From a bacterium (lineage in GTDB: Bacteria > Zhuqueibacterota > Zhuqueibacteria > Oceanimicrobiales > Oceanimicrobiaceae): DNA of 14,940 bases. The notes beneath the pieces are model-generated. The model was not told where the DNA came from, made no database searches, and saw only the letters and a program-made list of their open reading frames with translations. The first letter of the stretch is position 1; each line of letters opens with the position of its first letter. Where the stretch lies: positions 1-14,940 of the forward strand of contig JBHHXN010000129.1 in assembly GCA_046757025.1 (NCBI GenBank), given 5' to 3'. The position numbers and the translations under genes were made by a program. Of this stretch, positions 3,616 through 12,761 are shown piece by piece.

Positions 3616-3716
3616 AATAGATCGATTATCTACAACAAATCATCCTTTTCCTATTCCAATAAGGCCAGATGAATTAGCCGGTGCTCAACCTTCAGGCTGC
3701 GAAAGAGTAAGCTAAA

Positions 3717-3876
3717 GAGCCTGTGTGAAAAATCGAAATGTAAACTAAAAACCAATTTCACCCCTATTGTCATTCTGGAAGAATCTTTTTAATAAACAGC
3801 ACCTTACGTCCAAATAAAAAAGATCCCGCAGTTGCGGGATGACAGGTGGGTGGTTTGTGCGTTTTCACACAATCTG
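3717..3876. mobile_element. 160-bp MITE-like element with 15-bp imperfect TIRs and a TAAA target duplication
   Basis: Left end GAGCCTGTGTGAAAA (3717-3731) and right end TTTTCACACAATCTG (3862-3876) match 12/15 as inverted repeats. TAAA occurs at 3713-3716 and 3877-3880. The reconstructed empty site matches 6419-6437. Confidence 0.8.
3768..3844. repeat. Inverted pair of TGTCA-type hairpins with no gene between them
   Basis: TGTCATTCTGGAAGAATCT (3768-3786) and AGATCCCGCAGTTGCGGGATGACA (3821-3844; reverse complement TGTCATCCCGCAACTGCGGGATCT). Confidence 0.7.
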
Positions 3877-3910
3877 TAAAGCTTGAACACCCGAAAGTTA
3901 TTATTTGTCC

Positions 3911-6265
3911 CTATTTCAAAAATAACATTTTGCGAGAAATGGTCACTTTTTCAGTCTGAATCTGGTAAATATACAAACCGCTGGCCACGATTTCGCCAAC
4001 CTCGTTTTGGCCGTTCCATTGAATGGCATAATTTCCTGCGTTCTGATTTTCGGACACCAGTTTACGAATTTTTTCTCCAAGAATATTAAAAACACTTAGC
4101 TCTACTCGACCCGGTTTGGCCAAATCGTAGCGAATGGTAGTGATGGGGTTGAACGGATTGGGGTGGTTTTGATACAAAATAAATTCAGTGGGCACGGCTT
4201 CGCTAACGGGTCCGACGCCAGTGGCAAGGGGCGGCAGCTCAAAATCGAAAACCATTTCAGAACCGTAGGGCAAGTTGAAAGTCTGCGTGGCCGATTTGTA
4301 ATCCGGAGCGCCCACTTCCAGCGTGATGTTTTCCTCGCTGTCCAATTTGCTGGCGGCCAGGTAGCGAAATGTGTAGCGGCCGCCATTCTGAACAAATTGC
4401 GAAAATCCGCGTTCAGTTGATTTCACCAAAATGTTCTGGATGGGTTGTTTGGTGACGGAGTCCAGCACGTGACCTTTGATGACCGCCACTGGAAAAGTTT
4501 GCGACAAACTGGTGTTAATGGTGAATCGGCCGTCCACCGACACTTCGAAATAATCTTCCCAGGCTTTGCGGAATGCGGCAATTTTATCGAGATCGCTCTG
4601 AGGGGGGGCGCCGCCGTTTTGGGTGACCAGAATAAAGGCCTGGCGCAGGTCTTTTTGCACATCCGCTTCTGCAGGGAGGCGTGGGCCTTCCGCTGCGATG
4701 ATGGCCTCGATGGTCACCTCCACGGCGGTACCCGTGGCGGTGCTGCCTCGAACGGGCGTGCCCAGCGCGCGTCTGTCAGGAAGATTGTTGGTGGCGCTGC
4801 TGACAAAAATTCTGGGAGCGACTTCTTCGGGGGTGCGCAAACCCATCAAATATTCATCGAGCTCGCTGAAGAAATCGATTTGTGTCGGGGTAGTGAAAGT
4901 GTTGTCGGACAAAGGCTGCCAGTTGCCCCCTTCCAGCGAAGAATGATCGCTGTCGAAAAAGTAGCTCCAGTGCGCGTCGGCGCGCCCGAGGATCAGGTTG
5001 CTTTTGTTGCCATCGGCATCGATGAAGTTGACGAACGCGCCCCAGCGGTGCCCGGCTTCCTGTCCCATGATGGTTAAAAAATTGTTCTCTCCCCGAAAAA
5101 AGCGCTGTTTGGGATTGGCCGGCCAGGCGTCTAACTGGTTCATGTTGCAGCGGCTTTCCAGCACCCCGTTGCTGCCAAACAAACCGCTGTCATCGGAGAT
5201 TCGCACACCGATGCCTTGCGCGCTGTTTTTGATGGTGACTTCGTTGGCAAATCCCAACAAAGTTTGCGGGAAGTTGGTGAAGAAAATAAATTGAAAAAAA
5301 CTGTCCGGAAAAGTTCGATAAAAATTTTGCATCAGTGCGACGTCGTTCACCATGGGTTGGGTGATGTTCATATAGTTTTCAAACAGGCCCGTGTGCGCGG
5401 CGCTGCTGAATGGCAGATCGTCAGAGAAGCTGATGGTTTCCAGGTGTGCCGTGCCGCCTGGATGGATGCCAAAAGTAATGGGCGTACCGGTGGCGGCAAT
5501 TTTAGCGTCGATGCCGTTAAACGTGACGTCAAAGGAGCCATCGGCACGCAAAACCAATTGCAACGTGTTGGAATTGACAATTTCAAATTCCCGCACATTA
5601 TTCCAGGTAAGGGTCGTTTTGTTGGATTCGCTTTTTTGAAAAACGCCGCCCTGCTGCGCAGGATTGAGATCCAGAAAATAGGCGGCAATTTTGGGCGTTT
5701 CACTCAAAAAATCGTTGTTGTCATAAAAGCCACCGGGGTTCACATCCGCGCCGAAACTGACGATGCCGTTGGCGTTTACGTGCACATCGCTCCAAGCCAC
5801 GCCGAAGTAATTAAAAGTAAATGACAGGTTGACGGTGGCGTTTTCATCATCTCCTAACAACAAGTTGGTCCCCAGGTCGGAATCAAAATTGAATGGCACC
5901 GCAGTGATATCGTAACCGCCACCGACCGGCACAAAATGAAAAGTATGCTGGTCGGTATCAAAGGGATTGATGCCGCTGATGAGAATGGAGCCGTCATCTT
6001 CGGCTACCCAGACGTCATCAAACACAAACGAGCTGGCAGATAGTCGCTCCGATTTCTTTTTTGTGGATTGGTAGCGGTAGTAATTCCACAGATTTTCTTT
6101 TTCGTTGCCGCGGTAAGTTCCACACTCGAATTGCTGCGTAGCAGTCAGGCTGTGAGTATGGCGTTGGGGTTTAAAGGGATGATTTTTGCTTTGTATCTCA
6201 TTGATTCCTGAAAACAAGGTGATTGCAAAAAAGATAGTAAATTGAAGTGTTTTACGAGTAAGCAT
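3911..6265 (-). CDS. Secreted 784-aa protein: NIDO-like domain, metzincin-like domain with QExxH, carboxypeptidase-regulatory-like beta-sandwich, and T9SS/FlgD-type C-terminal domain
   Basis: Signal-like N-terminus; NIDO-like FTFNYFG...VNANGIVSFG...IAAYFLDLNP...NTLQLVL; MGQEAGHRWG...AHWS...YLMG; IKGHVLDSVTKQPI...YTF; YQNHPNPFNPITTIRY...RKMLFLK. Confidence 0.8.
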   Translation of the reverse strand: MLTRKTLQFTIFFAITLFSGINEIQSKNHPFKPQRHTHSLTATQQFECGTYRGNEKENLWNYYRYQSTKKKSERLSASSFVFDDVWVAEDDGSILISGINPFDTDQHTFHFVPVGGGYDITAVPFNFDSDLGTNLLLGDDENATVNLSFTFNYFGVAWSDVHVNANGIVSFGADVNPGGFYDNNDFLSETPKIAAYFLDLNPAQQGGVFQKSESNKTTLTWNNVREFEIVNSNTLQLVLRADGSFDVTFNGIDAKIAATGTPITFGIHPGGTAHLETISFSDDLPFSSAAHTGLFENYMNITQPMVNDVALMQNFYRTFPDSFFQFIFFTNFPQTLLGFANEVTIKNSAQGIGVRISDDSGLFGSNGVLESRCNMNQLDAWPANPKQRFFRGENNFLTIMGQEAGHRWGAFVNFIDADGNKSNLILGRADAHWSYFFDSDHSSLEGGNWQPLSDNTFTTPTQIDFFSELDEYLMGLRTPEEVAPRIFVSSATNNLPDRRALGTPVRGSTATGTAVEVTIEAIIAAEGPRLPAEADVQKDLRQAFILVTQNGGAPPQSDLDKIAAFRKAWEDYFEVSVDGRFTINTSLSQTFPVAVIKGHVLDSVTKQPIQNILVKSTERGFSQFVQNGGRYTFRYLAASKLDSEENITLEVGAPDYKSATQTFNLPYGSEMVFDFELPPLATGVGPVSEAVPTEFILYQNHPNPFNPITTIRYDLAKPGRVELSVFNILGEKIRKLVSENQNAGNYAIQWNGQNEVGEIVASGLYIYQIQTEKVTISRKMLFLK

Positions 6266-6378
6266 CTTTCATTCCATTTCTTTTGTTAGTTCAAAATTCA
6301 ATCTGATTAATAATCCTGTGTTTTATGGACATGAATTGAGCGATTACGCTTGATTTTCTCAGGAATGAGGTCATAGCG

Positions 6379-6437
6379 GGTGTTCACGCTTTAGCGTGTT
6401 CCTCCCGACTCACCACACAAGCTAAAGCTTGAACACC
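6379..6437. repeat. Intact REP-like inverted doublet (GGTGYTCA family)
   Basis: GGTGTTCACGCTTTAGCGTGT (6379-6399) and ACAAGCTAAAGCTTGAACACC (6417-6437) match 19/21 as inverted repeats. The two differences are a compensatory pair within the small hairpin (CACGC-TTTA-GCGTG versus CAAGC-TTTA-GCTTG). Confidence 0.85.
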
Positions 6438-6518
6438 AAAATCCCCACCGATGAGGCTTCGCACTGTTCAGGTTAGAGTTACATTGACTAATTTAGATGG
6501 TTCCACAATCCACAAAAT

Positions 6519-9419
6519 CTATTTCAGTAAAAGTAATTTGCGCGATTGCACAAACTCACCGGCTTGAAACAGCAAAATATACATACCGCTTGCAACCGCC
6601 GTTCCGGCGTCATTATTCCCTGACCACTGGATGGTATGTGCACCAGCTATTTTTTTCTCATCAACCAGCGTGCGAATTTTTTGTCCTCGTAAATTGTAAA
6701 TAACTAATTGCACATGGCGGTCTCGGGCAATTTCATAGCGGATGGTAGTGGCAGGATTGAAGGGATTAGGGTAGTTTTGATTCAGATAAAATCGTACAGG
6801 ATGGACTGGTGTCGGCTCTTCAACGGCGGTGGGAAACAGTTTATTCCACAGCGCTCGGGCGGTGTCGGCATTAGCCTGTAAATCGCTCAAATTTTCTCCC
6901 GCCAGCAGCGCAAAACCGATTTCCACGCTTTGGTCGGCAGGCAGTGAATAGGGGCCGGCGCCGATCACAAAGGCGATATCGGCCGGGCCCATGCGCGTGA
7001 CCTGAACCCCGCCGCTGATGGTTTGCCATTTTTCGTTATCGGTAAAACCGTCATCGGTGCCGAAAAAACTGGCTCCGTTGTCGATGGCTCGATACGATAC
7101 GCCACCGTCGCTCAAAACCGACATGCCAACGTAGGTGCCGGGCGCGTTGCCGCTGGTACCAAATGCGTAGCCCAATTTGCGCGCGTGGTCATAATCGGCA
7201 ACATTGGTGGCATAATTTTTTTCATCGATATCCCAGTCGAAAAAGATGCCAAAATGGAAATTGTTCAAAACGTTTAAGCCCGAATTCTCAATGGTAAAAC
7301 GGAAGAAGATGAAATCGTCGTTGGGCGGGGCAGTCATGGCGAAGGTTTCCTGTTTGATGCGAATATTCATGGGTAGCGTCGCTTTGGAGTCGTTAAAGAT
7401 GCCGATGCTTTCGTGATCCGTTCGGGTACCGGGAATGATTAGCTGCAAGTCGCCGCCGTCCACGATGGCAAAATCGTCGTCACTATTTGTTCGACTGCGG
7501 GCCGCGTTGGAGATCTGGCTCTGGCTGGCGCCGGCGATGATAGCGCCCTCGTACAGCAAATTGCCGCCGTTTTTAAACGTGAAACCCATGCCGCTGTCTG
7601 TGCTGTTGTCGGGATCGGCAAACCCGATGCGCCCGACGTTAGTGATGGTTACGCCGATGTTGTTGACCTCGATGTTTTTAAATATGGGCAAAATGGTTAA
7701 GGTGAAATGATCCAAATCCTGATACTTTCCAGCGGTCAGCTCGAGATTGAAAACGACCTGGCGCCCACCTGGCGCCCCACTGGCAACCGTGAAAATAAAA
7801 GGCGTGGAAAGCGTGATTTCGTTGTTTGAATTGATGGCTGAAATGATCTGAGTCGGGTTGGTTACGTTGACAAAATTATCGTTTTCGGTTAAAGTTAAAT
7901 TCAAGTTAGAAACACTGGTTAAATAATTTTTCAATTTGAGTGTGACCTCGACGGTTTCGCCGGGCTCAATGACGCCATCGTCGTCGCTGTCGCTGAACTG
8001 CAAGTCCGTTATGCGTACGGAAGGCGAATTTTGGGTGACGGCTTGCAAGGCGTTCACCCGCCCTTTCCCGAGCAAACCGGCGAAATTGGGATTGAGCTGG
8101 TCGATGTTGTCTGCGGTAACCCGTACCTGTTCCGCTACTTGATTTCCCGACCAATTCGGGTGCTGAGTTTTAACCAGTGCCGCCACTCCCGACACAATGG
8201 GTGTGGAAAAAGACGTGCCGCTGAACGAGCCGTAACGGCCGTTGTGCAGGGTGCTGAAAATAAATCTACCGGGCGCGGAGATATCCACGTCGGTGCCGTA
8301 ATTTGAGTTGAAATCTTTTAAGTCGCTGTTGTTGGTCATGGCCACGGAAAGGACGTTTTTGTATGAGGCTGGCAGTGCAGATGCCAATCGCCCGTCGTTA
8401 CCAGCCGCGGCGATGATGGCGGCGCCGCTGGCTGCAGTTAGATTGATGATATCCTGTTCAAAGGCGGAAGGACTTCCCAGGCGCGACCAGCTCAGGTTGA
8501 TGACGTCCGCGCCGTTGTCCGCAGCATAGAGGATGCCTTCGTATCCGAAATCTACAACGAGGTCCTGCACGGCATTGGAAGCGTTGATGGGCATGATTTT
8601 CGCATTCCAGCTTGTGCCTGCTACCCCGGTGACGTTATTGCTCACCGCACCCACCAGTCCGGCGGAGTGACTGCCGTGGTTGGCGCTTTGCGGTGTGGCG
8701 TCCAGACCCGAGGGGTCGTTGCTGTTGTTGGCAAAGTTCCAGCCCTGTACGTCATCCACAAAACCGTTGTCGTCATCATCTATGCCATTGCCGGCGATTT
8801 CCTTTGCGTTGCGCCAGATATTGGCCGCTAAATCGGAATGATCGATGTCGGTGCCGCCATCGACGATGGCAACGACGACGCTGCCCTGTTCGCCCTTTAC
8901 AACATTCCAGGCCTGCTCTGCCTGAATCACCGCATAAAAAGTCTGCTGGCTAAAAAGCGTGTCGTTGGGTGTGGCGGTCAAACGGTGCCGGTAAAGCGGC
9001 TCGGCATATTCCACTGCAGGGTGCTGGCGCAGGGCTTGCGCCACCGCCTGCGGGGGTTGGCTGCCGGTAAAATACGCATAATAAAGACTGGCAAGGGAGC
9101 GGGAAGATTTGATTTTCGCAAGAACATGGCGCGGGCGGTAAACTTGCTGCAACTGAGTAATTTTTTGAATTCGCAACAGTTGATCAAATGTGGCCAAACC
9201 GGTTGCAAACGCGGTTTTGCCAAACGTGCGGCCCTCTTTGAATTTGATAACAATTTTATTGGGAATGGTTTGCGCGTCATGGTTTGATAGCTTTTGGTGA
9301 CTGCTTTTTTTTGTTTTGAAAGCGAACAGCTCATCTAATTGCCATCCCGCCACAAATAAAAAGCCCAATGAAATAAATATTACAAACGGTGTTTTAAACC
9401 TTACCTTCATGACCGTCAT
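6519..9419 (-). CDS. Secreted S8 (subtilisin-family) serine peptidase with T9SS/FlgD-type C-terminal domain, 966 aa
   Basis: Intact triad: VAIVDGG (Asp), NHGSHSAG (His), GTSFSTP (Ser), with oxyanion AAAGND. Also a prodomain ending VEYAEP, the NGIDDDDNGFVDD loop, and QNYPNPFNP...RKLLLLK. An alternative start exists at ATG 9410. Confidence 0.95.
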   Translation of the reverse strand: MTVMKVRFKTPFVIFISLGFLFVAGWQLDELFAFKTKKSSHQKLSNHDAQTIPNKIVIKFKEGRTFGKTAFATGLATFDQLLRIQKITQLQQVYRPRHVLAKIKSSRSLASLYYAYFTGSQPPQAVAQALRQHPAVEYAEPLYRHRLTATPNDTLFSQQTFYAVIQAEQAWNVVKGEQGSVVVAIVDGGTDIDHSDLAANIWRNAKEIAGNGIDDDDNGFVDDVQGWNFANNSNDPSGLDATPQSANHGSHSAGLVGAVSNNVTGVAGTSWNAKIMPINASNAVQDLVVDFGYEGILYAADNGADVINLSWSRLGSPSAFEQDIINLTAASGAAIIAAAGNDGRLASALPASYKNVLSVAMTNNSDLKDFNSNYGTDVDISAPGRFIFSTLHNGRYGSFSGTSFSTPIVSGVAALVKTQHPNWSGNQVAEQVRVTADNIDQLNPNFAGLLGKGRVNALQAVTQNSPSVRITDLQFSDSDDDGVIEPGETVEVTLKLKNYLTSVSNLNLTLTENDNFVNVTNPTQIISAINSNNEITLSTPFIFTVASGAPGGRQVVFNLELTAGKYQDLDHFTLTILPIFKNIEVNNIGVTITNVGRIGFADPDNSTDSGMGFTFKNGGNLLYEGAIIAGASQSQISNAARSRTNSDDDFAIVDGGDLQLIIPGTRTDHESIGIFNDSKATLPMNIRIKQETFAMTAPPNDDFIFFRFTIENSGLNVLNNFHFGIFFDWDIDEKNYATNVADYDHARKLGYAFGTSGNAPGTYVGMSVLSDGGVSYRAIDNGASFFGTDDGFTDNEKWQTISGGVQVTRMGPADIAFVIGAGPYSLPADQSVEIGFALLAGENLSDLQANADTARALWNKLFPTAVEEPTPVHPVRFYLNQNYPNPFNPATTIRYEIARDRHVQLVIYNLRGQKIRTLVDEKKIAGAHTIQWSGNNDAGTAVASGMYILLFQAGEFVQSRKLLLLK

Positions 9420-9646: not shown

Positions 9647-9761
9647 AGACCGGGTTGAACTTCTTGTCATTTACTCAAGTTTCGCAATTGTGTAATCAAT
9701 TGTTTCTAAGTTATTTTTCTTAACATGAATTCACATAATTCGTAACTATTCAGCACAGAGC

Positions 9762-9789
9762 TGTCATTCCTGCGAATGCAGGAATCTCC
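9762..9789 (+). repeat. TGTCA-type REP-like hairpin, left copy
   Basis: TGTC-ATTCCTGC-GAAT-GCAGGAAT-CTCC; matches the reverse complement of 10164-10191 at 25/28. Confidence 0.85.
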
Positions 9790-9801
9790 TCTGGCTTCCA
9801 T

Positions 9802-10089
9802 TTAAACTAGTTCAGCGTACGAGTCTTTCCATTCTGGATTTATTTCTCCAATGACATTCGCTTTGTATTCCCGCTGCCATTTTTTCATGCTTTTTTCCTG
9901 AGTGATAGCGGCAGTAAAATCTTATGTTTGTTGAAACCACACCAGCTGGTGGCAAGGGTATTTTTTTGTAAAGCCATGGCTCAATTCCCTTTTGTGCTCA
10001 TAAACACGTCGAATAAGATTGTTCGTTACACCGAAGTAAAGCACATTGTTATGTTTGTTTGCCATCATGTACACGTTGTATGTTTCCAC
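9802..10089 (-). pseudogene. Small stand-alone GIY-YIG nuclease (about 95 aa) with one in-frame TAA at 9922-9924
   Basis: GTG 10089 follows a GAGGA Shine-Dalgarno-like sequence. Translation: METYNVYMMANKHNNVLYFGVTNNLIRRVYEHKRELSHGFTKKYPCHQLVWFQQT*DFTAAITQEKSMKKWQREYKANVIGEINPEWKDSYAELV*. The VY...LYxG, RRxxEH, FTxKY, AIxxEK.xKxW and NPEW motifs continue in frame past the stop. Confidence 0.88.
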
Positions 10090-10163
10090 AATTCCTCTAC
10101 CTGAACCTGTTTTTACTTGATTGAACGCTATGAATTCTTTTCTCACTTATTTACATTGAATCG

Positions 10164-10191
10164 GGAGACTCCTGCATGCGCAGGAGTGACA
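10164..10191 (-). repeat. TGTCA-type REP-like hairpin, right copy (inverted)
   Basis: Reverse complement reads TGTC-ACTCCTGC-GCAT-GCAGGAGT-CTCC. Confidence 0.85.
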
Positions 10192-10354
10192 CCTGAATAG
10201 TTACCATAATTCTTTATAACAACTATCGTTACAAATATTCCAAAATTTTACAATGTAACCATTTATTTAAGAAGTCATTCTAAATCGATCTTTTGATTCA
10301 ATATTAAAAGGCCATTTGCTACAGAACAATTAACTCTAAAATAAAAACTTTGCT

Positions 10355-10447
10355 TTTAACGCAGAGGCCTCTGAGAGCGCAGAGAGTTTCGCAGAACGAT
10401 ATTTTTTTCTCTGCGCAGCTCTGCGCCATTGGCGCCTCTGCGTTAAA
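10355..10447. repeat. Long palindromic repeat built from CGCAGA(G) / CTCTGCG units
   Basis: Perfect outer 14-bp inverted repeat TTTAACGCAGAGGC (10355-10368) / GCCTCTGCGTTAAA (10434-10447). Three CGCAGA units face three CTCTGCG units. Confidence 0.8.
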
Positions 10448-10503
10448 TAAAATGGTTAGAATGTTTATATAACGACTCAATCACCCTGATTTTGGAATAT
10501 TAA

Positions 10504-10648
10504 TGCTCCTGTTGATTAAGTCCATTTTCCCATCAATCTTCATGCTGAGCGGAGTCGAAGCATGATGAAAAAACAACAGGTTACGGCCATTCCCAAATTT
10601 ACTTCGGGATTCAGCCAGAATGTTTCTTCGACTTTATCAACAGAGTCA
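10504..10648. mobile_element. About 145-bp MITE-like element flanked by TTAA (or ATTAAT), containing a REP-like hairpin
   Basis: Imperfect inverted ends TGCTCCTGTTGATTAAGTC and GACTTTATCAACAGAGTCA. TTAA at 10500-10503 and 10649-10652. Internal palindrome TCATGCTGAGCGGAGTCGAAGCATGA (10540-10565). The right part is repeated at 2411-2471. Confidence 0.65.
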
Positions 10649-10742
10649 TTAATGTAACATCTTTAATATTAATTTCTGAAATACGAATTCATCAGCTTGA
10701 CCTTATTTGTTTTTGTTTCTATTATCTAAGTACGAGATTGAG

Positions 10743-12761
10743 TCATTTGGCCGTAACCGCTTCTCCGGTTAAATATTTTTCGAACCAGCCGCGCAAATAC
10801 AGAATCTGCTGGATCTTGCTGGTGGGGTGCCGGCGGCCGATACCGTGAAACTCATCTGCGATGCGCACCATGGCGGTTTCAATCTTGCGCAATTTCAACG
10901 CGCGATAATACTGTTCCGTCTGCTCCATGGGGGTGCGCAAATCTTTTTCGCCGGTCAGCAGTAAAGTCGGGGTTTTGACATTTCCCACATACATCAGTGA
11001 AGAGCGGCGCAGGTGTTCCGCCGGATCTTCCCACGGCAGTTTTTTGAAATTGTAGTACCAGCTGCTGCCGTCGGTGGTGCCCACAAAACTGAACCAGTTG
11101 GTGACGGGTTTCATCACCACGGCGGCCGCAAAGCGTTCGGTATGGCCTACGATCCAGGAGGTGAGCACGCCGCCGCCGCTGCCGCCGCAAACAAAAAGCT
11201 GGCTTTCATCGATATAGCCGCGCTTCAGTATTTCATCCACGCCTTTCATCAGGTCGATGTAATCCGGGCCGGGATAATTATTTTTAATGGCGTTGCCAAA
11301 CGCCTGGCCATAACCGCTGCTGCCGCGGGGATTGGTGTACAACACCACAAATCCGTTGGCGGCATGATTCTGAAACTCAAAGTTGAAGCGCACACTGTAC
11401 ATGGCGTGCGGGCCGCCGTGAATGTACAGAATCAGCGGATATTTTTTCTGTGCATCGAAATCCGGCGGTTTCACGATCCAGCCCTGAATGCGTACCCCCT
11501 CCGCCGAATCATACCAGATTTCTTCCACCTCGCCCAATTTTCGATCTTCCAACAAATCGTCGTTTACCGCCGTGAGTTGTTTCGGTGTGGGATGCTTGCG
11601 CGAGAAAGTGACCAGATCGCCGGGCTGATGATAGCCGGCAAGCACCGCGGCTATCTGGCCTTTTTTGCCGATAAAAGGTGAAGATATGTAGTGGCTGCCC
11701 CTGGTAACCTGGATGATTTTACCACTTTTCAGCGAAACAAAGTGCAGGTTTCTGGCGCCGCGATCCTGGTAAGTAAAAAACAAACCTGAACCGTCAGCTG
11801 CCCACTGCACCGACGATGGCCGCCGATCCAGCTCAGCGGTTAACGAACGCTTATGGCTGCCGTCGAGATTCATAACATACAATTGGCTGACGATGTAAGT
11901 GTCGTCGGTGCGGTCATAACCAGTATAGGCGATCATTTTGCCGCCTGGAGAAACCACGGGATTGTAATCCGGGCCTTCGCGGTCGGTCAGAGCCGTAATG
12001 GCGCCCTCTTCCAGCGTCACCAGGTAGATTTCGGATTCCCGCCACTGCCAGTCCCATTCCGGCTCTCGCAATCCGCTGAAAACAAGGCCTTTGCCATCGG
12101 CAGTCCATTTTGGCGCGCCGTCGTTGAAATCGCCAAAGGTCACCTGACGCGGTGTGCCACCAGAAGAAGGAATCACATAAATGTGTCGAAAGCCATCGGC
12201 GTTGTAACCGCGGCCATCTCGGCGGTAGTTCAAGCGGTCGATCACCCGCGCAGGTTGGCTCCATTTGGCGCCTCGCGGCTTTTTGGGCATTTTCACCCGC
12301 CAGGATTTTTCCGCGGGACCGATCATGTTAAACGCAATCTTTTTACCATCTGGCGACCACTGGATATTACTGGGAGAATTTTCCAATCTGGTTAACTGGC
12401 TGCTCTCGCTGCTGTCCATCCAGCGCACATAAATTTGGGAGCCGGTCGGTTCGCCTTTGGCCGTATAAAGCAAACGCTGACCATCCGGCGACCATTTTGG
12501 TGAGGCGCCTTTTAACAGGAAACGGTCTTTGCTGCCATCGATATTCATGATCCAGATCTCGCTCGAATATTTATCGTTCACTTTGTCGGTCCAGCGTTTA
12601 GTGTAAACGATTTGTTTGCCATCGGGTGAAAGCTGGGGGTTTGAAACCGATTCCCATTCCAGGAACAGGTCCACGGTGAGTTTGTCATTAGGCTGCGCTT
12701 GCAACGCAATAGTGAAAAGCAGCCAAAAACTCCAAATTAATACAAGCGTTCTGCGTTTCAT
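10743..12761 (-). CDS. Secreted S9 family peptidase (dipeptidyl/acylaminoacyl peptidase type) with PD40/TolB-like beta-propeller, about 672 aa
   Basis: SPDG repeats, YIHGGPH, NPRGSSGYG, nucleophile motif GGSGGG, DLRTP (Asp) and EFHGI (His). Start placed at ATG 12761 (MKRRTLVLIWSFWLLFTIALQA signal peptide, AAGGA upstream) rather than 12821. Confidence 0.93.
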   Translation of the reverse strand: MKRRTLVLIWSFWLLFTIALQAQPNDKLTVDLFLEWESVSNPQLSPDGKQIVYTKRWTDKVNDKYSSEIWIMNIDGSKDRFLLKGASPKWSPDGQRLLYTAKGEPTGSQIYVRWMDSSESSQLTRLENSPSNIQWSPDGKKIAFNMIGPAEKSWRVKMPKKPRGAKWSQPARVIDRLNYRRDGRGYNADGFRHIYVIPSSGGTPRQVTFGDFNDGAPKWTADGKGLVFSGLREPEWDWQWRESEIYLVTLEEGAITALTDREGPDYNPVVSPGGKMIAYTGYDRTDDTYIVSQLYVMNLDGSHKRSLTAELDRRPSSVQWAADGSGLFFTYQDRGARNLHFVSLKSGKIIQVTRGSHYISSPFIGKKGQIAAVLAGYHQPGDLVTFSRKHPTPKQLTAVNDDLLEDRKLGEVEEIWYDSAEGVRIQGWIVKPPDFDAQKKYPLILYIHGGPHAMYSVRFNFEFQNHAANGFVVLYTNPRGSSGYGQAFGNAIKNNYPGPDYIDLMKGVDEILKRGYIDESQLFVCGGSGGGVLTSWIVGHTERFAAAVVMKPVTNWFSFVGTTDGSSWYYNFKKLPWEDPAEHLRRSSLMYVGNVKTPTLLLTGEKDLRTPMEQTEQYYRALKLRKIETAMVRIADEFHGIGRRHPTSKIQQILYLRGWFEKYLTGEAVTAK

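Follow-up and report, generated by a model that had tools for sequence, protein, structure and literature searches.

What moved a short DNA unit in which two inverted, tagged hairpins enclose a broken gene for a small GIY-YIG nuclease? The question is posed by positions 9762-10191 of the window, the whole 14,940-nucleotide stretch of bacterial DNA analysed here, which a first-pass annotation had read as a candidate REP/RAYT-like system with a different enzyme, in which the nuclease itself may spread the hairpins. We consider it very probable that the unit is instead a non-autonomous element with a broken Ssn cassette that owes its movement to an ISBst12-group (IS66-family) transposase encoded elsewhere and acting in trans. 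The pairing of enzyme and hairpin is itself already known and not new; what the locus presents is a known Ssn/SRM system in a new vehicle.

The gene is an ssn pseudogene (GIY-YIG, cd10448-type) of 95 codons on the minus strand (9802-10089), a single GIY-YIG domain as expected of Ssn. It starts with GTG, replaced by ATG in several sister copies, and an AGAGGA ribosome-binding-like motif lies upstream; a promoter and terminator scan found nothing exceeding shuffles. The first 54 residues match Pfam GIY-YIG (PF01541; E 1.9e-9), while an NCBIfam search with the gene fragment matched no family. When the stop is read as X, the read-through protein aligns over 90 of 94 residues with the SsnA orthologue of N. 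gonorrhoeae (38.9% identity, E 4e-24), a 94-aa protein from a 2.4-kb locus with flanking NTS copies that we retrieved via the published ssnA primer (PMC11893778). Y6, Y17 and the catalytic E64 of SsnA are all kept, E64 lying downstream of an in-frame TAA at codon 56 (9922-9924, minus strand). A sequencing error as the source of the TAA was rejected, as five copies carry it and contigs of three runs show no other letter there. Judged from sequence, the window copy today probably yields no working nuclease, and all it contributes is two potential sites for cleavage by Ssn.

Intact relatives give further context. Protein databases were queried with an intact paralogue (7249/7249 candidates matched) and an intact closer relative, and by way of these queries the intact proteins closest to the window copy are known only in part. 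The paralogue (L001, G000:C173:9606-9899) has its own hairpin type and no IS ends; it is flanked by hairpins of the long-loop TGTCATTTCGAG...GAGAAATC type, which escape the published SRM pattern, and the neighbouring ORF encodes what we take to be an HsdM-like methyltransferase. A close intact relative (L012, G008:C276, ~1298-1910) lies between two directly repeated doublets, each pairing a ACTCCTGC-type with a ATTCCGGC-type hairpin, and the same pairing makes up gene-less 135-bp GTAACT elements in G000 (C3, C145, C243). With a single-sequence structure model of this relative, of moderate quality (pLDDT 74), Foldseek ranked GIY-YIG structures first, weakly, none at E <= 0.001, and a sequence search of solved structures with the intact paralogue found none.

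Much of what the nuclease would do at such hairpins has been published. According to the available text of Chenal et al. 2025 (Nat Commun, PMC11893778), Ssn (cd10448) comprises GIY-YIG proteins of ~94 aa that bind a GTCA-tagged hairpin (NTS/SRM) solely as single-stranded DNA and cleave a few bases upstream (5') of the tag; in the case of Neisseria SsnA, the cut falls 5 nt ahead of the tag's G, giving a 20-nt product with the G at 26. The GTCA tag and the C after the palindrome are both required for cutting and binding, and hairpins stand on both sides of 42% of Ssn homologues. The proposal of a small GIY-YIG family that would recognise GTCA-tagged hairpins and cut next to them is right, but had already appeared as Ssn/SRM. 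The likeness to a REP/RAYT system had also been anticipated, as the discussion of that paper draws the analogy to REPs and IS200/IS605, merely raising IS-like mobility (PMC11893778, available text); the further step, in which the nuclease spread the window copy, is unsupported. The window shares with Ssn/SRM a single-domain GIY-YIG protein of ~95 aa, the NTS-ssnA-NTS layout, the GTCA-tagged 8-bp hairpin and the 3' C. It differs in having a broken gene, a swap from C:G to T:A within the hairpin stems, arms that fall short of the strict SRM pattern, and a cassette lying between IS66-type ends with an 8-bp duplication, an arrangement not described in the available text of PMC11893778.

The hairpins are of the SRM/NTS-like kind. 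The downstream arm (9762-9789, plus strand, TGTCATTCCTGCGAATGCAGGAATCTCC) has a ATTCCTGC stem and the upstream arm (10164-10191, minus strand, TGTCACTCCTGCGCATGCAGGAGTCTCC) a ACTCCTGC stem; both bear the TGTCA tag, and they fit the NTS consensus at 22/28 and 20/28 positions, respectively. In each, an 8-bp stem closes a 4-nt loop while TGTC stays unpaired (fold z -3.6 and -3.8; 0/200 and 1/200 shuffles equally good); the GTCA tag is 5' of the stem and a C directly follows the palindrome. The window has no longer or better inverted repeat than that of the two arms (31 nt, 87%). A search of the window with the SRM pattern in its strict published form gave 0 matches, each arm being 2 substitutions away; the pattern matches 94 times in the whole genome, against 13-23 in 5 shuffles, and also misses most close homologues (matched at 5/30 loci).

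The three differences between the 28-nt arms, at arm positions 6, 14 and 23, are as first described. Beyond the compensatory change noted between two of them, stems do covary across the hairpin family: Watson-Crick pairs occupy the three tested stem pairs in 44/45, 44/45 and 42/45 distinct hairpins (shuffle means 30.0, 20.4 and 16.7; 0/2000 shuffles as good), in a set that left the test pairs unconstrained during selection but includes kin that are not independent and some loci fetched by likeness to the window arms. The T:A/C:G difference between the arms is one inherited state that sister copies also show; the change in the loop (position 14) occurs in the window copy alone.

Two other repeat systems invite comparison. 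Like REP-RAYT systems (REPtrons) and TIRtrons, the locus places tagged hairpins on either side of a small gene whose enzyme acts on single-stranded hairpins, with gene-less doublets elsewhere; unlike them, its enzyme is GIY-YIG rather than HUH/Y1, its tag is TGTCA rather than the GTAG of REP-RAYT, and it is flanked by an 8-bp duplication typical of DDE transposition. The CGTC-1 REPs, as described in the available text of PMC3733652, resemble the window arms in their CGTC/TGTC tag, 8-bp stem opening with AT, 4-nt loop and short tail, and also form head-to-head dimers, but no dedicated transposase was found there, whereas the window repeats ride on DDE-type ends.

Tagged hairpins are strongly enriched beside homologues of the gene, as the first-pass annotation had suggested checking. 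They occur within 300 bp at 78/80 metagenomic loci (63/80 on both sides), the best 80 of 549 confirmed homologues, a few duplicates among them, against 6/89 control windows, and at <=300 bp from 22/30 class homologues (18 on both sides) against 4/46 controls. The controls accompany a relaxed tag-plus-stem rule that was written after the flanks had been seen. This enrichment speaks for a RAYT-style reading, with the GIY-YIG nuclease as the agent that moves the hairpin-gene-hairpin unit and gives rise to gene-less hairpins; so do the cleavage by Ssn 5' of the tag and the raising of IS-like mobility in the available text of PMC11893778. The genome also holds the intact paralogue with its own hairpin type (C173), and 32 short-loop and 84 long-loop NTS-like hairpins without a GTAACT-type end nearby, so that some other route must spread these. 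Even so, we regard the nuclease as a very improbable mover of the window unit, for reasons that begin with where the unit ends.

Those boundaries fall outside the arms. BLAST against the genome itself showed that sister copies match from 10204 to 9742 and no further, 14 and 20 bases beyond the hairpins. The hairpin-gene-hairpin unit first annotated at 9762-10191 is real, but the true unit is larger, its ends having been overlooked: a 463-bp non-autonomous element (9742-10204) with IS66/ISBst12-type ends carrying SRM-ssn-SRM, delimited by sister-copy boundaries, empty sites and contig junctions. Its 12-bp terminal inverted repeat GTAACTATTCAG lies at the gene-downstream end (9742-9753, plus strand) and again at the gene-upstream end (10193-10204, minus strand), and the ends of five single-ORF IS66-family elements are the same or near-identical. 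Outside the repeats stands a target-site duplication of 8 bp, CATAATTC, on the left (9734-9741, plus strand) and in perfect copy on the right (10205-10212, plus strand). These IS-type ends and the 8-bp duplication indicate that the element was likely copied by a borrowed IS66-type transposase and not by its own nuclease.

Such duplications recur within this family of ends. A looser search of the genome found 29 pairs of these ends, spanning 54 bp to 6.6 kb. Among 24 of 30 listed end-pairs (6 cross-pairings or implausible pairs were dropped), 8-bp duplications were perfect in 7/24 and matched at >=7 of 8 positions in 14/24, compared with 0 and 0.2% of shifted controls (n=888), with agreement highest at a length of 8 bp. 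No duplication flanks C28:34307-34769, the closest sister copy (97%), where 2 of 8 positions match.

The element sits in a dispersed host repeat of ~20 copies (9669-10748; BLAST coverage 17-41 on both flanks), which is also the target of a second small element. All 17/17 examined copies of the repeat are continuous across the insertion point, the exact 8-mer occurring once in 7. Contigs diverge at 9742, and in those from two runs a joint skips 471 bases (463 + 8), which is probably a paralogous empty copy. The host repeat is a nested stack of small elements and also contains a long AACGCAGAG...CTCTGCGTT hairpin at ~10355-10447 (z -5.0).

Could the copies instead reflect recombination or assembly error, with ends matching by chance? 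The assembly is fragmented and several element ends coincide with contig ends, but flanks and 8-bp duplications differ per site, empty sites exist, the same structure recurs in other genomes, and the junctions also appear in independent contigs that come from 4 runs of one study. We judge this reading to be almost certainly wrong. The run contigs come from that one study, possibly the source samples of this genome.

Autonomous elements with the same ends exist. They were found at 4/30 IS66-family (PF03050) loci from relatives and 1/80 viral-contig loci (L054, L055, L057, L065 and L116), each 1.5-1.7 kb with a single long ORF and ends shared with the window element. One of them (L116) has a perfect 8-bp duplication and a PF03050 match at E 4e-60; the other four are without a matching duplication. 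ISBst12 is listed as a DDE subgroup of IS66 (PMC8024623, available text), and ISDge4, a single-ORF element of the ISBst12 group for which transposition was observed, is bounded by GTGACTACTCAGCA/GTAACTGCTCAGCA and comes with an 8-bp repeat (PMC12898284, available text); one of its ends is identical to the window repeat at 12/14 positions. This assembly (95% complete, 374 contigs) has 0 PF03050 matches to an intact IS66-type transposase; it does contain the 5' part of one such transposase at the end of contig C354, with the element ends unassembled. A single L054-like transposase query matched in 1/5 MITE-rich genomes.

The window element thus shares with the IS66/ISBst12 group and with MITEs the GTAACT-type terminal repeats, 8-bp duplication, dispersed copies and empty sites. 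It differs from IS66/ISBst12 elements in having no transposase gene and an Ssn cassette as its interior, and from MITEs, given as 70-300 bp in the available text of PMC3733652, in its length of 463 bp. GTAACT ends surround none of the other ssn loci searched (0/30 class homologues, 0/80 metagenomic homologues); with none at these 110 loci, the ends are no regular component of Ssn cassettes. The literature searched, mostly open papers, contained no description of Ssn or SRMs within IS66/ISBst12 ends.

The same ends hold other cargo as well, including hairpin doublets and four-helix-bundle, T5orf172 and PDDEXK_3 genes. Three elements (G000:C51:10051-11747, C123:13539-14320 and C13:53531-54187) place GTAACT ends around a four-helix-bundle (23S_rRNA_IVP) gene with heptamer repeats and a T5orf172 gene, and around PDDEXK_3-type remnants. 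The small modules of gene plus repeats that IS66-type ends capture are of several kinds, and the fact that non-Ssn cargo is among them counts further against the nuclease as mover. Large families with GTAACT ends and GTCA-tagged interiors occur in G007, G096, G106, G092 and G003 (116, 31, 23, 11 and 10 junction matches), and several of the elements checked have perfect 8-bp duplications.

The history of the stop codon bears on the same issue. Seven alignable copies cover the broken codon, which reads TAA in 5, CAA in 1 and TCC in 1. The copies sharing TAA are 82-97% identical in pairs and the copy tree is largely without resolution; a single origin of TAA would be the parsimonious account. Private coding changes comprise 28 synonymous and 90 non-synonymous substitutions, with omega at 0.75-1.02, not different from neutral; a cruder count of all substitutions against the majority gives dN/dS 0.43, and neutrality emerges only after shared changes are removed and transitions weighted. 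A shared stop and neutral decay suggest that the element likely kept multiplying without its nuclease, spreading on after the loss.

Related elements reach beyond this family. They were found in genomes of two other families (G096 and G090), ~80% identical including the ends, and the whole element was not found in the first 40 relatives. The first genome has 68 matches, among them three ssn-remnant copies with perfect 8-bp duplications. The second has one copy, its 5' end cut by the contig start, with a frame open to its end and 68/86 residues identical. Open relatives in both carry Asn or Lys at the position of the stop codon. Given these open-frame relatives in other families, the capture predates the stop, and the unit was present in, or moved between, several lineages.

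The gene-less relatives that had been attributed to the nuclease also have other explanations. The doublet at 3768-3844, which its activity was proposed to explain, is GTCA-tagged, with a good fold in the right arm only, and forms the interior of a second MITE (3717-3876) that has GAGCCTGTGTGAAAA-type ends and 4-bp TAAA duplications at 3713-3716 and 3877-3880. The window copy is 160 bp long. The genome has 53 end-pairs of this type; 30 are flanked by perfect 4-bp duplications, and 30 have inward GTCA tags on both strands. The type's ends read GAG(C/A)CTGTGTGAAAA and it is often inserted in the middle of GGTGTTCA-type palindromes; a DDE_Tnp_1_6 search for its partner transposase found none. The hairpin at 10540-10565, suggested as a possible further product of the nuclease, has TTCA before its stem, with GTCA in 0/50 genomic matches, and lies untagged within a third MITE (10505-10647) that has GACTCTGTTGAT-type ends and ATTAAT on both sides. 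That family has ATnnAT flanks, and a 64-bp part of the window copy is repeated at 2411-2474. With both hairpins inside other MITEs, the nuclease is not needed to account for their position.

Taken with the IS66-type ends, the 8-bp duplication and the multiplication despite a stop codon, this leads us to set aside the view that the nuclease spread the window copy and its gene-less relatives; moreover, the available text of PMC11893778 does not report strand-transfer activity of Ssn. Elsewhere in the window, two more intergenic repeats (6378-6477 and 2350-2441) have 12-38 genomic matches, one of them being a GGTGTTCACGCTTTAG-type palindrome. The stretch 3911-9419 encodes a secreted subtilase and another secreted protein; their C-terminal sorting-type domains are similar, and the DNA for these domains recurs at a distance of 2608 bp. 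Other genes in the window encode M1 and S9 peptidases and a TIGR01777 oxidoreductase.

The nuclease may still have had a part at an earlier stage. In a two-step partnership, the transposase moves the element, and Ssn, by nicking 5' of the inward tags, would have released the cassette that was then repaired between minimal IS ends; such release would be the reason that IS ends so often abut GTCA tags. A GTCAY tag lies 10-40 nt from an end in 23/28 paired GTAACT elements <2 kb (at both ends in 20), against 4.2% of random 30-nt windows. Counted from the element end, 41/43 tags are at positions 15-17 or 21-22. Across the phylum, junctions of end plus tag occur in 28/167 genomes (275 matches), compared with 13/167 (31 matches) for a permuted tag, and the cut of Neisseria SsnA 5 nt before the G of the tag (PMC11893778, available text) is in keeping with the proposal. 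However, the 43 tags stem from ~five families and are not independent events, their spacing from the ends is bimodal with no single fixed distance, and some junction matches are other repeat types rather than SRMs (L310, L311, L313-L316). Since four-helix-bundle and PDDEXK_3 modules are captured by these ends too, it may be enough that intergenic hairpin DNA is taken up generically, or that IS end and tag share short homology (L054 and L055 ends). We therefore hold this partnership to be possible but rather unlikely. The bolder claim that would build on it, that Ssn cuts act as a MITE factory in which excised hairpin doublets and whole ssn cassettes are repeatedly joined to the minimal ends of unrelated DDE insertion sequences, is likewise offered tentatively, as something we doubt more than we believe.

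Movement by an IS66-type transposase in trans, the account that we favour, can be laid out in four steps. An intact ancestor of the window gene would have bound the tagged hairpin in single-stranded form and cleaved it a few bases to the 5' side of the tag, as is known for family members (PMC11893778, available text). The SRM-ssn-SRM cassette would then have been joined once to minimal ISBst12-type ends, in an ancestor shared with the elements in two other families of the class. From there the unit entered many sites, each insertion being marked by an 8-bp duplication where this is kept, and the window copy landed in a repeat whose other copies are empty. Five copies now carry the same stop, with private changes that are neutral, and their movement would not have needed the nuclease.

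For the spread of CGTC-type REPs, the available text of PMC3733652 records that no dedicated transposase was found. If the MITE factory were real, these REPs and the Ssn gene would gain the transposase that they were said to lack, and it would explain how an intact ssn cassette crosses between bacterial families inside ISBst12-type ends. Intact relatives (L012 and L327) offer further Ssn/hairpin pairs with a stem variant that the published pattern misses. The locus also serves as a warning that the look of a transposon in a hairpin-ssn-hairpin arrangement can hold for reasons unrelated to the nuclease. Above all, it provides one concrete route, with clean footprints, for the spread of SRMs and ssn: hitch-hiking inside IS66-type ends, even after the death of the nuclease.
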